A stretch of DNA of 33,198 bases from the IMG/VR virus record IMGVR_UViG_3300045919_000425, positions 1 to 33,198 of that record. One strand, 5' to 3'. Numbering within the stretch: the stretch's first letter is position 1; each line of letters opens with the position of its first letter. The notes below the pieces were generated by a model. That model did not search any database. It saw only the letters and a program-made list of their open reading frames with translations, and had not been told where the DNA came from. The translations under genes were made by a program, and so were the position numbers. Shown here one piece after another: positions 3,734 through 18,609 of this stretch. This DNA is from a virus. Taxonomy: Duplodnaviria > Heunggongvirae > Uroviricota > Caudoviricetes.

Positions 3734-3807
3734 ATAGGGCTTAAATCAGCAAATACTAACTATTAAGTTGTTGATTGTATTAAATATTTTTTATTTGACA
3801 GACTCAC

Positions 3808-5362: not shown

Positions 5363-5490
5363 TTAAATAGGAGAAGAATACTTCTCCGAGCACCGAGAGG
5401 GTTTAACCGCTAGCGAAACTGAGGTTAAACAAGTAAATGGGACACCGACTATACAGGTGTTGACCTGAACCCAAGAGTACCGGGTAAGTT

Positions 5491-5923: not shown

Positions 5924-5952
5924 TTGACTTCTAGTTAAGATTGTGAGAATAT
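5924..5952 (+). promoter_or_regulatory. early sigma70 promoter P3
   Basis: TTGACT-17-GAATAT with extended -10 TG. Confidence 0.75.
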
Positions 5953-5992
5953 ATGAATAAGGAAGGGAACTTGGAAACCAGGAACTTTCCAA

Positions 5993-6004
5993 GTTATTTG
6001 ACAA
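5993..6004 (+). promoter_or_regulatory. boxA-like element
   Basis: GTTATTTGACAA after a 5' hairpin; identical at 7114-7125 and 8619-8630. Confidence 0.5.
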
Positions 6005-6009
6005 TTTTG

Positions 6010-6073
6010 GGTTTGAATCCTTTAAATAGGATCGGGAGCCTGCTAGTCTGGAATAAGATGGCTAGTTATGATA
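6010..6073 (+). ncRNA. candidate two-hairpin leader RNA, family R2 copy 1
   Basis: covaries with 7131-7191. Confidence 0.5.
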
Positions 6074-6167
6074 CGAACGAAAAGTTTAAAAGCTTTTTGA
6101 TATTAGGTTGAACTTTTCAGTCTAATACAAAGCGTTTTTTAACCAAACAATTTTTAGGAGATAAACA

Positions 6168-6530
6168 ATGACAACTAATCAAATCACTTTCGCTCAAGCT
6201 TACATATTCGCTAAAGAGTTAATTACTCAAAGATGTGAAAACTACGGTTATGACTACAAAGTGTTTCAAAGAATTAGCCGCCAACGCTCCGACGCAAGAA
6301 AAGCGTTCCAACATTTCTTCCACTTCAACCCTGAAACAGTAATACAAAGACTTGCTAACGAATACAGAGTAAGTCTTGAAAGCTGTAAAATCACAGAAAC
6401 ACTTTCAAGCGGCTCTAAGATTGTCAAAGAAGAAATGAGGCTTACTTATACAGTTGGGCAATCTAACAATGAAGAAATTACCAACCTCTTGAGAAGATTA
6501 GTAAACCCAAAAGCTAAATGGGTACAATAA
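6168..6530 (+). CDS. early protein, paralog family B
   Basis: RCENYGY, RISRQRSDAR, YTVGQSNNEEITNLLRRLVN shared with 9112 and 10101. Confidence 0.85.
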   Translation: MTTNQITFAQAYIFAKELITQRCENYGYDYKVFQRISRQRSDARKAFQHFFHFNPETVIQRLANEYRVSLESCKITETLSSGSKIVKEEMRLTYTVGQSNNEEITNLLRRLVNPKAKWVQ

Positions 6531-6541
6531 GAAAGGACGCT

Positions 6542-6727
6542 ATGAGAGTTTACCTTGTATATAGAATGGAAGACGCAAACACTTACTCTTATCATGAGTT
6601 TATATCAGAGCTTCATTGTATAACACTGACCGAGGACAAAGCGATAGAAATAGTTAATGAATTAAACAAGGGGATTAGAAGCCTTGAGCGTGAAGCGTAC
6701 TATAACCCTGAAGACGTAATCGAGTAA
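6542..6727 (+). CDS. hypothetical early protein
   Basis: AAGGA RBS favours ATG 6542 (MRVYLVY...). Confidence 0.65.
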   Translation: MRVYLVYRMEDANTYSYHEFISELHCITLTEDKAIEIVNELNKGIRSLEREAYYNPEDVIE

Positions 6728-6757
6728 CAATAAACAAACATTTAGGGAGACTTAAAA

Positions 6758-7021
6758 ATGACTAAGAAAGGTGTTGAAGTTTCGACCGATTTCTTACTTG
6801 AAAAATTTTACAGTAAAATAAGCAGCTATTTTACTGTTCAAACTCATATCTTGGCAGATGGGACTTGCGAAGAGTTTAACGAGTTAGAACTTTTTAAGTC
6901 CCATGAACAGTTTAAGTCAAAGAGGTATGGGTGGTTTCAGGATTGGCTTAAAGCTCGTTGCAAAACGGGATTATTAAGAAAAGAAGGTAAAAAGCCAAAT
7001 GTAAGGTATTTCGCACTGTAA
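6758..7021 (+). CDS. hypothetical early protein
   Basis: GGGAG RBS, 87 aa. Confidence 0.7.
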   Translation: MTKKGVEVSTDFLLEKFYSKISSYFTVQTHILADGTCEEFNELELFKSHEQFKSKRYGWFQDWLKARCKTGLLRKEGKKPNVRYFAL

Positions 7022-7038
7022 AAATAATGGACCGCAGT

Positions 7039-7125
7039 ACTTGACTTATAGTTAAGATTAGGATAGTATTTAAATATGGAAGGGATAAGAGAACAAAACC
7101 TCAAAATCCCTAAGTTATTTGACAA
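7039..7125 (+). repeat. 87-bp exact direct repeat (promoter P4 + 5' hairpin + boxA-like element), second copy 8544-8630
   Basis: base-by-base identity; TTGACT 7041-7046, TAGTAT 7064-7069. Confidence 0.95.
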
Positions 7126-7130
7126 TTTTG

Positions 7131-7191
7131 AAGCTGTACTCTTAAGAGAGTCGGGGCTTTACTCGGTTGGAAACGATACCGAGTTATGATA
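7131..7191 (+). ncRNA. candidate leader RNA, family R2 copy 2
   Basis: AAGCT/GGCTT, ACTCT/AGAGT and CTCGGT/ACCGAG stems; TTATGATA tail. Confidence 0.5.
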
Positions 7192-7210
7192 AAAAGATTA
7201 CAACCGAGAA

Positions 7211-7265
7211 TAACAAACTTAACTGCTAGGGATATTAACCCTAGAGGATAAGAATGTTTCTTATC
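7211..7265 (+). ncRNA. candidate RNA, family R3 copy 1
   Basis: covaries with 10026-10078. Confidence 0.5.
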
Positions 7266-7291
7266 AGAACGAAATTTTTTAGGAGGTTCCC

Positions 7292-7600
7292 ATGACTACA
7301 GTTCAATCTATCGTATCTATTTCTGAAGTTGTTGAGTATGCTAATGTTTGCGGCTCCGATTTTTTCAAGTCCTCAATGCTTAAAAGTATCGGCTGTGAAA
7401 TTATTAAAGGCTCTGAGGCTTTTCTTGCTAATAATAAGTATTATTTCGTAACATGCGATAAGATTATTGGAGATAAAAAACCAGGCTACACAGTTCGTTG
7501 CTTAAATTCTCTCGGAAACACCAAGACGCTTGGCTCTTACCAACAATTCAAATCATATAACCATGCAATGCGTGTAATTAAAGCCCATCTTTCTAAGTAA
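7292..7600 (+). CDS. small early protein, paralog family A
   Basis: AGGAGG RBS; VCGSDFF, YYFVT, YTVR..NSLG, FKSYNHA. Confidence 0.8.
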   Translation: MTTVQSIVSISEVVEYANVCGSDFFKSSMLKSIGCEIIKGSEAFLANNKYYFVTCDKIIGDKKPGYTVRCLNSLGNTKTLGSYQQFKSYNHAMRVIKAHLSK

Positions 7601-7641
7601 CCTAACAATAAACCATTAAACTTAAACATTTAGGAGATAAC

Positions 7642-8310
7642 ATGGAAAATAAGAGCTATTTCTATTTCAGTAAAGAACTTAGTAAGTGGATTGTCGCTAC
7701 AAATCTAACTATTGTAGTAGGCCAATATGATAGCTTAAACGACGCAACAAAAGCATATGAGCTTTTAACTAGTAAGCCAATACTAGACACTAAGCCAGTA
7801 AAAAGACGATCCTTAAAAGGATTACGCAAGGCGGTTAGAAGCTACCACAGAGCGATAGCAAAGGGAGATCTTAAGACTTCCTCTTGCTCTAAAGAGGAAG
7901 CGATTGTAGCACTGTCTACTACAAGTAATCAACAAACAGACACTAAACCAGTTAAACGTATACGTTTAACCTCAGTTGAAAAGAAGGGATTCTATTACAA
8001 CAAGAAAGCAAAGAAATTTCAAGCCTATTTTGGTGTTGGTGCCGGGAAGCAACTATATCTCGGATTGTACGAAACAGAGTCGGACGCACGTCATGCAAAT
8101 CTCAGAGCCATGCTAGAGTACAGATCTAAAGGTTCCGTAACAATCCCATTTGTTTGTCCGAAAATGGGGTACTACTTGAAAGGTAATCAGTGGGATGTTT
8201 GCTTTTATAACCCATTAACCAAAAAGACGGAATTTATGCCATCTTTCAAATCTCAACTGGAAGCTAGAGAAGCCTACTTAGACGCACTTGAGGAAATACT
8301 CGGAGGTTAA
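7642..8310 (+). CDS. protein with AP2-like DNA-binding repeats
   Basis: KKGFYYNKKAKKFQAYFGVGAGKQLYLGLYETESDARHA matches the AP2 pattern; weaker N- and C-terminal copies. Confidence 0.6.
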   Translation: MENKSYFYFSKELSKWIVATNLTIVVGQYDSLNDATKAYELLTSKPILDTKPVKRRSLKGLRKAVRSYHRAIAKGDLKTSSCSKEEAIVALSTTSNQQTDTKPVKRIRLTSVEKKGFYYNKKAKKFQAYFGVGAGKQLYLGLYETESDARHANLRAMLEYRSKGSVTIPFVCPKMGYYLKGNQWDVCFYNPLTKKTEFMPSFKSQLEAREAYLDALEEILGG

Positions 8311-8314
8311 GTTT

Positions 8315-8533
8315 ATGACAATAAGAGTTATTAACGGTAAACGCTACAGTTTTGATAAGCAAAGATCTTACTGTGATTCAGTTGAAACTTTTTGCTACAA
8401 GGTTCATGAAGTAAACGGAAACAATAAGCAAATCTCAGTAAGCGACACTTTACCCCTCAAAATGTCTTACCTTGTTGAAATGATTAAAGAAAATAGGCTA
8501 TGCCTTGAAAGATTAGAAGGAGTAGAAAAATAA
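8315..8533 (+). CDS. hypothetical early protein
   Basis: GGAGG RBS favours ATG 8315. Confidence 0.65.
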   Translation: MTIRVINGKRYSFDKQRSYCDSVETFCYKVHEVNGNNKQISVSDTLPLKMSYLVEMIKENRLCLERLEGVEK

Positions 8534-8543
8534 TTTCATAATC

Positions 8544-8630
8544 ACTTGACTTATAGTTAAGATTAGGATAGTATTTAAATATGGAAGGGATAAGAGAACA
8601 AAACCTCAAAATCCCTAAGTTATTTGACAA
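8544..8630 (+). repeat. 87-bp exact direct repeat, copy 2 (promoter P5)
   Basis: TTGACT 8546-8551, TAGTAT 8569-8574. Confidence 0.95.
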
Positions 8631-8691
8631 CTAAATAGGTGCTGGTAGGGCTTACCAACAATAAGCGACAAGCCTACTAAGTTAAAGGTTA

Positions 8692-9111: not shown

Positions 9112-9471
9112 ATGACAGTTCAAGAAAATCAAATCACAATCGAAATGTTAAACGCTTTCACTTCCGAGTTACTAACTGCTCGTTGCAATAACTACGGCTA
9201 TGATTACAGAGACTTTAAAAGAATTTCAAGCCAAAGAAGTAAGGCGAGAAAAGCTCTTTTAAATCAAGTTAGCTCATTCGGCTTTGAATCTATTAAAGCT
9301 AACTTAGTTCAAGAAGCGAGAATACAGTTTATGAGATTTAAAATTATTGACGGCAATAAAATTCCAACTTTTGAACGTGGGATATGTTACATGGTTGGTC
9401 AGTCTTCAAATGAAGAAATTACCAACCTTATGAGAAGATTAGTGAATTCACAATCTAAGTGGGTTAAATAA
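9112..9471 (+). CDS. early protein, paralog family B
   Basis: RCNNYGY, RISSQRSKAR, YMVGQSSNEEITNLMRRLVN. Confidence 0.85.
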   Translation: MTVQENQITIEMLNAFTSELLTARCNNYGYDYRDFKRISSQRSKARKALLNQVSSFGFESIKANLVQEARIQFMRFKIIDGNKIPTFERGICYMVGQSSNEEITNLMRRLVNSQSKWVK

Positions 9472-10100: not shown

Positions 10101-10412
10101 ATGACAGTTACACAAATTACAGTTGAAATGCTAAATGATTTTACATCCTCTTTATTAGCAAACCGTTGTGATAATTATGGCTACATTTGGAAAGATTTCC
10201 GTAGGATCTCTAACCAAAGAAGCAAGGCAAGAACTGAGTTCCGTAGCTTTGTAAAGTATTTTACTGGGACCTTAATAGAAAGAATTGAGCAAGAAAGTAG
10301 AATACAACTAGAAAATGGCAAGCTAACTTACATTGTAGGTCAATCAAGTAATGAAGAAATTACTAATCTCATGAGAAGGTTAGTAAATCCAAAAGATAAA
10401 TGGGTAAGTTAA
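10101..10412 (+). CDS. early protein, paralog family B
   Basis: RCDNYGY, RISNQRSKAR, YIVGQSSNEEITNLMRRLVN. Confidence 0.85.
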   Translation: MTVTQITVEMLNDFTSSLLANRCDNYGYIWKDFRRISNQRSKARTEFRSFVKYFTGTLIERIEQESRIQLENGKLTYIVGQSSNEEITNLMRRLVNPKDKWVS

Positions 10413-11894: not shown

Positions 11895-12277
11895 CTCAAA
11901 CAACCCAAGATCGCACGGATCTACACCTTAGTTCTGTATACTCAGGATCAATAGGTGTTGCAATGATATGTCACACCAACAAAATACAGTCGTATCAAAG
12001 GAAACTTTGATACGTGGCATTTTCGTATTAAGCTAATGAGTAGCGCTGTGGTAGCAAGTTAGGATTTCGAGGATCTTCTTTAAGAGATCAAGTCTCCGAG
12101 AGTTTAAGCTTTAAAAAGATTAAGAGCTTAAAAAGAGCCTTTCCGCTGCCACAAAAATACAAAGAGCCAAAAATCTTAGGAATTCTTTCCTAGGCTTTTT
12201 CGTGTCCTAGTACGATAGGACACTAGCAAACTAGTATTTCCATGTACTAGTTTAGAATTTCGGAGTTTGATTTTGGC

Positions 12278-12537
12278 CTTGCGATTTCCCTAGGGAGAAA
12301 ACAGACTCAACCAACCTCAAAATCACCACACTAATAATATCAATCACTTACCTTTTCAACCAACTAAAAAGATTCACAACCGCTCTCAACCCCTAGGAGG
12401 AAAATCGCTCGGTATGATTTCCTACGGAGCGATCCGAGCACGAAAGCTTTCTTTTATACGAATCTAGTAATATTAGAGACTTATAAAAGAAGGAAGAATT
12501 TTCTTAAAACCTCTTGCGATTTCCCTAGGGAGAAAAC
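12278..12537. repeat. 25-bp direct repeat pair with CCCTAGGG palindromic core
   Basis: CTTGCGATTTCCCTAGGGAGAAAAC at 12278-12302 and 12513-12537. Confidence 0.9.
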
Positions 12538-12575
12538 TAGCATGAGGAGGTTTTTGACAATTTTCTCCGAGACTC

Positions 12576-18072: not shown

Positions 18073-18609
18073 TCAGAGTTCCCATACTAAAACTGCATCC
18101 AATCCATTATTAAACTCAATCGTTCTTGTTGGCTTTACGAGATCTATCCAATACTGGAGTGGTAAAAGCCTTTCATCTCCAAAGGAGGGTGTCTTCCATC
18201 CTTCGAGTGGTACATAATGTACAACCTTCTTAGCAGTGAATCTCTGTCTATGGATAATCCGCTTAATATCTTCATCGTTGAAATGTTCCAAAACTCCATG
18301 AGAGAAGATTATGTCTGGCTCATTGTCTACATATTGGAAGTTCAGAATACTTCCTTGAACTAAGTCAATCTTGCGATCTCCAATATTAACCCTAGCTAAA
18401 TTCAGTTGCTCTGGACATAAATCAAAAGCCGTGTGCTTTTTCCTACTTTTATGGTAAACAATCTTTGATATTGTCGCTATTCCACAGCCTTCTTCACTGA
18501 TATGATTAAGCGAGTGTAATTCGTCGATGAAGGCTTTGTACTTTATCTTACAATGTGCAGGATAAGAATCACCAACTCGTTTCTTGTAATACTCTGACCA
18601 TTCACTCAT
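18073..18609 (-). CDS. class I SAM-dependent methyltransferase
   Basis: EEGCGIA (motif I), AFDLCPEQL, QGSIL, DIIFSHGVLEHF. Confidence 0.85.
   Translation of the reverse strand: MSEWSEYYKKRVGDSYPAHCKIKYKAFIDELHSLNHISEEGCGIATISKIVYHKSRKKHTAFDLCPEQLNLARVNIGDRKIDLVQGSILNFQYVDNEPDIIFSHGVLEHFNDEDIKRIIHRQRFTAKKVVHYVPLEGWKTPSFGDERLLPLQYWIDLVKPTRTIEFNNGLDAVLVWEL

Follow-up and report, generated by a model that had tools for sequence, protein, structure and literature searches.

The early region of a large tailed phage (IMG/VR record IMGVR_UViG_3300045919_000425) contains three promoters, P3, P4 and P5, each of which is followed by a hairpin and then by an invariant word of 14 nucleotides (nt), AAGTTATTTGACAA. 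This word is identical to the boxA found in the ribosomal RNA operon (rrn) leaders of one clade of Silvanigrella-like bacteria, and we consider it probable, judging from sequence comparisons, that the three copies are rrn-type boxA elements, copied or mimicked from host rRNA leaders, which load the host antitermination machinery in cis. The window analysed here comprises the first 33,198 nt of the record, which is linear, 158,938 bp long, estimated to be 98% complete and has a guanine plus cytosine (GC) content of 38.5%. It stems from wetland and freshwater metagenomes and encodes, among others, a terminase, a portal, a baseplate protein, DnaB, RNR and a Lon protease. The phage is very divergent; it has a contractile tail, the sheath of which shares no more than 33% identity with that of Myxococcus phage Mx1.

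The window and the whole genome alike contain exactly three copies of the 12-mer GTTATTTGACAA (5993-6004, 7114-7125 and 8619-8630), all on the plus strand, against about 0.06 copies that we calculate to be expected from base composition. If up to two mismatches are allowed, 9 matches are found where 6.4 are expected, which is not above chance; two of these near-copies are close to promoters, immediately upstream of P1 (3790) and P6 (12549). The original prediction, made from the window alone, had noticed a hairpin followed by an invariant 12-nt word after each of the three promoters; the invariance holds, but the word is in fact 14 nt long (5991-6004, 7112-7125 and 8617-8630). Its continuations, described as TTTT or CTAAA, read TTTTG in P3 and P4 and CTAAATAGG in P5. 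Since P4 and P5 have their copies within a perfect 87-bp duplication (7039-7125 = 8544-8630), the three copies represent two independent lineages; between P3 and P4 there is a 19-nt island of identity at the motif, while the flanking hairpins have diverged. The P5 extension matches contexts of boxA in rrn leaders, namely GTTCTTTGACAACTAAATAGTG in one Patescibacteria genome and ...GACAACTGAATAG / CTGAATAG in the phylum of Silvanigrella sp. G001.

Each copy is situated downstream of one member of a promoter family, CTTGACTTnTAGTTAA..(TGn)TAnnnT, which has about 20 sites in the genome within 9 substitutions; eight of these are in the early island, and the word accompanies three of the eight (-35/-10 positions 5924/5947 in P3, 7041/7064 in P4 and 8546/8569 in P5). 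Counted from predicted transcription starts, which were placed 7 nt beyond the -10, the first base of the 12-mer is at about +35 in P3 and about +39 in P4 and P5. In all three leaders the 5' hairpin is predicted to end 0-2 nt before the 14-mer, which is itself unpaired in the centroid fold. The long untranslated leaders extend for 210-270 nt up to the first ATG, with the word 165-215 nt upstream of the start codons, whereas the operons behind them are short, 1-3.5 kb, and no clear intrinsic terminator occurs before 12175. The earlier suggestion that rrn-style antitermination drives long early operons is consequently retained for its rrn-style part at the level of sequence, but not for the length of the operons; the likely target is Rho within the untranslated leaders. 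As had also been noted, the TTGACA embedded in the word lacks a conserved -10 at 17 nt (TTTAAA, TTAAGA and AGGGCT). At 16-18 nt the hexamers are CTTTAA/TTTAAA/TTAAAT in P3, CTTAAG/TTAAGA/TAAGAG in P4 and TAGGGC/AGGGCT/GGGCTT in P5, none of them of the form TAnnnT, and a promoter scan called no promoter at the embedded TTGACA.

Bacterial rrn leaders were scanned with an anchored pattern, in which boxA is joined to the 27F site of the 16S rRNA gene, in one genome per species (185,579 species) and over a single distance window of 96-156 nt upstream of the 27F site. The pattern recovers the boxA of Escherichia coli rrnH, in which GCTCTTTAACAA stands at about +35 from the P2 promoter, behind a hairpin and 140 nt upstream of the 27F site; the phage shares this order of hairpin and boxA, as originally proposed, and not that of the lambda nut site. 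The phage 12-mer was found in this interval at 12 loci in 11 genomes, where we estimate about one match by chance: five Bacteroidota, three Patescibacteria, one Lentisphaeria, a lake Silvanigrella sp. and a pond metagenome-assembled genome (MAG). At each of these loci the word is preceded by a promoter and a hairpin, and the phage word therefore is a natural variant of the rrn-leader boxA. Plasmid-borne rrn operons of Firmicutes and Actinomycetota carry different boxA words, GAACTTTGAAAA and GACCTTTGAAAA with 4 mismatches and GTTGTTTGAGAA with 2.

Within the phylum of the Silvanigrella genome (131 genomes) this variant characterizes a single clade, in which 30 of 30 recovered rrn leader copies from 10 genomes (G001, G002, G125-G130, G133 and G134) carry TTATTTGACAA / TTATTTGACAAGAGAAG. 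The clade consists of Silvanigrella, a genome that likely belongs to Spirobacillus, and relatives, which are freshwater bacteria of low GC content. By contrast, leaders of the sister group read TTCTTTGAAAAGAGAAG, also given as TTCTTTGAAAA, and those of the rest of the phylum TTCTTTGAAAACTGAATAG or TTYTTTGACAACTGAATAG. The full 14-mer is present in all five clade leaders that were fetched, and the boxA of the 16S-23S spacer in the fetched operons reads GTT[A/T]TTTGA[C/A]AA. In three clade genomes the 13-mer AGTTATTTGACAA has 18 copies, 15 of which lie in rrn leaders or spacers and the other three, in the same orientation, in the 5' regions of non-rRNA genes; the reversed control has none. NusB and Rho are encoded in five of five clade genomes. 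The comparison with the rrn leaders of the predicted host, for which the original prediction had called, thus comes out positive and supports the rrn-style interpretation at the level of sequence.

NusB-NusE reads an 8-nt core of boxA. At position 5 of this core both the phage and the clade have A, where E. coli has C, and at position 3 both have U, so that the phage carries a lineage-specific variant and not the general consensus. The A5 variant argues for a tuning to the NusB-NusE of that lineage; in E. coli, a C5A change in lambda boxA abolishes both function and affinity for NusB-NusE (PMC3177189).

Some further features of the clade genomes concern boxA and its surroundings. The three non-rRNA copies of AAGTTATTTGACAA are at loci L214 (G129:C1:1830100-1833200), L215 (G129:C2) and L216 (G130:C1); two of them have the 20-mer AAGTTATTTGACAATTGAAT in common, and one follows directly after a TTGATA-18-TATAAT promoter, ahead of a lipase-like open reading frame (ORF). 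The genes behind these copies are candidate cellular Nus-regulated genes. In the clade rrn operons (L171-L175) the leader word GCAGAAACAGAGTGCGGGTCC, located 10 nt after boxA, has its perfect complement in GGACCCGCACTCTGTTTCTGC just past the 3' end of the 16S rRNA, forming a leader-trailer processing helix in which the host CAGAGTGCGGG after boxA pairs with the 16S trailer. Finally, in three of five clade rrn promoters the position 17 nt downstream of TTGACA is taken by CAAGTT, and not by a TAnnnT hexamer.

The Silvanigrella-like clade is the probable host of the phage. The correlation of relative synonymous codon usage is 0.78-0.91 with the clade, compared to 0.73, 0.58 and -0.46 with the other lineages in which the boxA matches; the phage Lon is 51-52% identical to Lon of the clade and 45% elsewhere; and the pond MAG G002 has a GC content of 0.37, near the 0.385 of the phage. 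Together with habitat, these features give weak, partly independent support to the assignment. The phage tRNA-Pro, 72-76% identical to that of all candidates, does not discriminate. An early or middle methyltransferase gene on the minus strand (18073-18609; Pfam Methyltransf_25/11) contains a stretch of 72 nt that is 80% identical to Silvanigrella sp. G001, which is probably an S-adenosylmethionine-binding motif. Bacteroidota use different promoters and little Shine-Dalgarno pairing; a host from this group was rejected on such established knowledge, given the TTGACT/TAnnnT promoters and strong AGGAG ribosome sites of the phage. A patescibacterial host was rejected as well, the A-variant occurring in the seed genome only among 401 sampled Patescibacteria. 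A narrow literature search turned up no paper on phages of Silvanigrellaceae. Here, the boxA variant narrows the host to a family-level clade, Silvanigrellaceae, and exact mimicry of a lineage-specific boxA could become a host signal for uncultured phages that can be read from sequence alone.

The proposed mechanism would operate as follows. Host RNA polymerase would start at the strong early promoters P3, P4 and P5 and transcribe first the hairpin and then, at about +35 to +50, a single-stranded boxA, to which host NusB-NusE (S10) would bind. Together with NusA, NusG and SuhB, NusB-NusE would convert the polymerase to the fast, Rho-resistant form that is normally reserved for rRNA, and the converted polymerase could pass through the 210-270 nt of structured, untranslated leader and the small-gene operons behind. 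No N-like phage protein would be needed; in agreement with the earlier observation that no N-like gene is evident, a PHROG search of 20 early ORFs detected no N- or Q-like family, although small divergent N-like proteins could escape it.

Several observations weigh against this interpretation. The P4 and P5 cassettes are the product of one recent duplication, so that conservation is that of two lineages, and as no related phage was retrieved it is conservation within this phage alone. The leaders of P1 and P2 are equally long and untranslated, yet are without boxA, and the element is therefore not a general requirement for early transcription. Since there are no clear intrinsic terminators inside the P3-P5 operons, any benefit must be against Rho, the action of which is unpredictable here. 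The rrn promoters of the clade also read (A)TTTGACAA at -35, which makes the core word alone ambiguous. With respect to the host, most clade genomes have a GC content of 0.29-0.33, which is 5-9 points lower than in the phage; tetranucleotide usage does not favour the clade, with a correlation of 0.31-0.44 for each of the AT-rich candidates; and when the first 20 kb were compared by BLAST with 34 genomes of the order, the matches were to low-complexity sequence and methyltransferase motifs only, none of them CRISPR-like or spacer-like. The host assignment is partly circular, and because a single distance window was scanned, other lineages with this boxA may exist. The phage was found in no RNA run.

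The cassette may be more than a loading site, either because it makes a takeover RNA that soaks up NusB-S10, or because boxA and the covarying stem-loops that follow it make up a composite, protein-independent antiterminator, a hybrid between rrn boxA and a put-like RNA; this we regard as unlikely. It is distinctly unlikely that the leaders are pure decoys, which would titrate NusB-S10 off the rrn operons and thereby depress host rRNA synthesis during takeover. The sequence evidence is the same for a decoy as for loading in cis, three strong promoter cassettes would each produce boxA RNA, P1 and P2 do without boxA, so not all early units need the element, and transcribed boxA on multicopy plasmids is known to compete for NusB in E. 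coli. However, the position at +35 to +50 behind a promoter and a hairpin is that of the cis-loading site on rrn operons and in phage T7, neither a terminator nor an obvious processing site is present that could release a small stable boxA RNA, and against a host with 4-5 rrn operons of two boxA each, three phage sites would need very high expression.

Quite improbable, too, is a leader-RNA element that acts independently of Nus factors, such as a single-stranded linker or processing site, in which the match to rrn would be captured or coincidental. The leaders are mosaics of common modules, with conserved stem-loops directly after the motif in P3 and P4, and in P5 a further repeated module that is structured as well, as might be expected of such an element. 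Nevertheless, identity stops at the 14-19-nt word and the flanks are wholly different among P3, P4/P5 and the host leaders, as is typical of a site that is bound sequence-specifically in single-stranded form; moreover, in genomes of the host clade the word occurs almost exclusively in rrn operons, and T7 has the same arrangement without these RNA modules. A role at the DNA level, with TTGACA as the -35 of a second tandem promoter or as an operator for a DNA-binding regulator, is highly improbable: although the hexamer is perfect and follows AT-rich DNA, near-copies occur just upstream of P1 and P6, and clade rrn promoters read AATATTTGACAA at -35, no copy has a -10 with A2 and T6 at 16-18 nt (P5 has none at all, and the scan calls none), the exact 12-, 13- and 14-mers match rrn boxA rather than the variable -35 regions of the clade, the 13-mer has the orientation of the downstream transcription unit in each of its 18 copies in three clade genomes, and the word is not a dyad.

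The features of the early region are compiled in Table 1. The near-copy at 12549 differs by one mismatch from a spacer boxA, GTTTTTTGACAA, of genome G129. It is preceded closely by the second copy of a direct repeat of about 24 nt, CTTGCGATTTCCCTAGGGAGAAAAC, which occurs at 12277-12302 and 12513-12538 in the long non-coding stretch between the terminator-like hairpin of the P5 operon (12175-12194) and P6; the pair could be operator sites or RNA elements. Downstream of boxA in the P3 leader, at 6084-6147, folding predicts a long AU-rich hairpin that ends in GCGUUUUUU and could be a weak intrinsic terminator or attenuator, which the terminator scan passes over because it has too few G-C pairs. 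The P2 leader contains at 5405-5445 the word GAGGTTAAACAAGTAAATGGG, loosely like the P5 word AAGTTATTTGACAACTAAATAGG minus its U-rich core, and may be a decayed boxA or a chance resemblance. An Rfam scan of the early region found no family.

Searches for relatives of the phage gave little at the DNA level. A close DNA relative is absent from the GenBank phage set, and a terminase search of viral contigs led to no close relative; relatives of the gene behind P3 exist as proteins (P0002-P0007, 55-89% identity). The 14-mer alone matched viral contigs about 114 times by chance, for the most part within coding regions, the promoter word had 5 chance matches, and contigs of four DNA runs were low-depth fragments only, without usable variation at the motif. 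Three paralogs of a family of putative early proteins (A1) are encoded in the window at 6168-6530, 9112-9471 and 10101-10412, with the invariant motifs NYGYD...SQRSKAR...GQSxNEEITNLMRRLVNP. Relatives of this family (loci L011-L037) occur on metagenomic contigs with GC contents from 20% to 64%, i.e. in phages of very different hosts, and these distant loci are without the boxA motif.

Table 1. Positions of early promoters, hairpins, putative boxA copies and related sequences in the window
Feature	Position	Strand	Remarks
Near-copy TTTATTTGACAG	3790..3801	+	7 nt upstream of P1 -35 hexamer (3808); not counted as boxA
Early promoter P3	5924..5952	+	-35 TTGACT, 17-nt spacer, TGa-GAATAT extended -10; predicted start near 5959
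P3 5' hairpin	5961..5990	+	Purine-rich 5' arm, boxB-like position; minimum free energy and centroid folds agree
Putative boxA copy 1, AAGTTATTTGACAA	5991..6004	+	About +33 to +46, then TTTTG; unpaired in centroid fold
Exact 87-bp repeat (promoter + hairpin + boxA)	7039..7125	+	Twin 8544-8630; family D2, 100% identity; ends on last base of boxA
Early promoter P4	7041..7069	+	TTGACT-17-TAGTAT; predicted start near 7076
P4 5' hairpin	7081..7111	+	AGGGAU...AUCCCU with inner GAG/CUC
Putative boxA copy 2, AAGTTATTTGACAA	7112..7125	+	About +37 to +50, then TTTTG; unpaired in centroid fold
Early promoter P5	8546..8574	+	Identical to P4
P5 5' hairpin	8586..8616	+	Identical to P4 hairpin
Putative boxA copy 3, AAGTTATTTGACAA + extension CTAAATAGG	8617..8639	+	Unpaired in centroid fold
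Near-copy GGTTTTTGACAA(TTTT)	12549..12560	+	15 nt upstream of P6 -35

Among known systems, the rrn antitermination signal (boxB hairpin - boxA - boxC, acting with NusB, NusE, NusA, NusG, SuhB and S4) is the one that the phage element resembles in most respects. As in E. coli rrnH P2, a promoter is followed by a hairpin and by a single-stranded boxA, of 12 nt in rrnH, around +35; the phage word has the sequence of the presumed host's boxA, is on the transcribed strand, falls at +33 to +50 from the predicted starts, is predicted to be unpaired and has a hairpin before it, and no phage protein is apparently required. Unlike the rrn signal, however, it heads protein-coding early operons instead of rRNA, and no convincing boxC and no partner for a leader-trailer helix were found. 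G-rich words, GAGAGTCGGGG in P4, 20 nt after boxA, and GGATCGGGAG in P3, resemble the host CAGAGTGCGGG, but the stems predicted in the phage are local only.

In phages, Nus factors have been treated as a lambdoid matter (PMC5725501). In lambdoid nut sites (boxA - spacer - boxB, acting with N and Nus factors), boxA RNA likewise recruits NusB-NusE to the early phage transcript and suppresses termination (PMC2800207, PMC3177189), but the boxA of lambda departs from the rrn consensus and depends on N, which is bound to the downstream boxB hairpin. The phage studied here has boxA in the rrn form, its hairpin lies upstream and the 20 early ORFs contain no N- or Q-like match. Cellular non-rRNA boxA elements in the 5' untranslated regions of suhB, S10 and other genes act at distances of up to about 50 nt from the start codon and can have a repressive effect (Baniulyte et al. 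2017, PMC5725501). They also stand 5' of protein-coding genes, but the phage copies are farther upstream, and the candidate host genomes hold three such non-rRNA 5' sites.

A lytic phage with an exact host boxA after its promoters A1-A3 is already known in T7, and the idea of rrn-style antitermination in such phages is therefore not a new one. In T7 the E. coli rrn boxA GCTCTTTAACAA occupies 813-824 (L180), upstream of gene 0.3 and downstream of a small hairpin, at a distance of 63 nt from the A3 start (750). It carries no annotation in the RefSeq record. Its region is conserved in 277 T7-like records, with the island 815-846 at 94% in the most distant ones, and no other part of the leader is as well conserved as the island around boxA in the T7-like phages of Escherichia, Klebsiella, Yersinia, Salmonella, Serratia, Citrobacter and Pantoea. 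The T7 boxA was reportedly noted in the original T7 sequence paper, but to our knowledge its function has never been established, and it is not discussed in the literature that we searched; it has remained an unexplained sequence note. Both phages have an exact host-type rrn boxA (with the host of the present phage presumed) tens of nucleotides after strong early promoters for the host polymerase, after a hairpin and before the first early gene, and both are without a known lysogeny module. They differ in that T7 has one boxA for three tandem promoters, whereas the present phage, an unrelated 159-kb contractile-tail phage with a presumed host in another phylum, has three promoter-hairpin-boxA cassettes on separate operons. 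What is new here is the presence of three such putative cassettes in a large phage unrelated to T7, with an exact match to a lineage-specific boxA of the presumed host, and the leaders of P3-P5 with boxA and of P1 and P2 without it provide, in one phage, a directly testable system. We know of no textbook case of phage Nus-factor antitermination other than the lambdoid phages with N; the parallel between T7 and an unrelated large phage of another bacterial phylum suggests that N-independent use of the rRNA machinery may be a recurrent strategy of early transcription.

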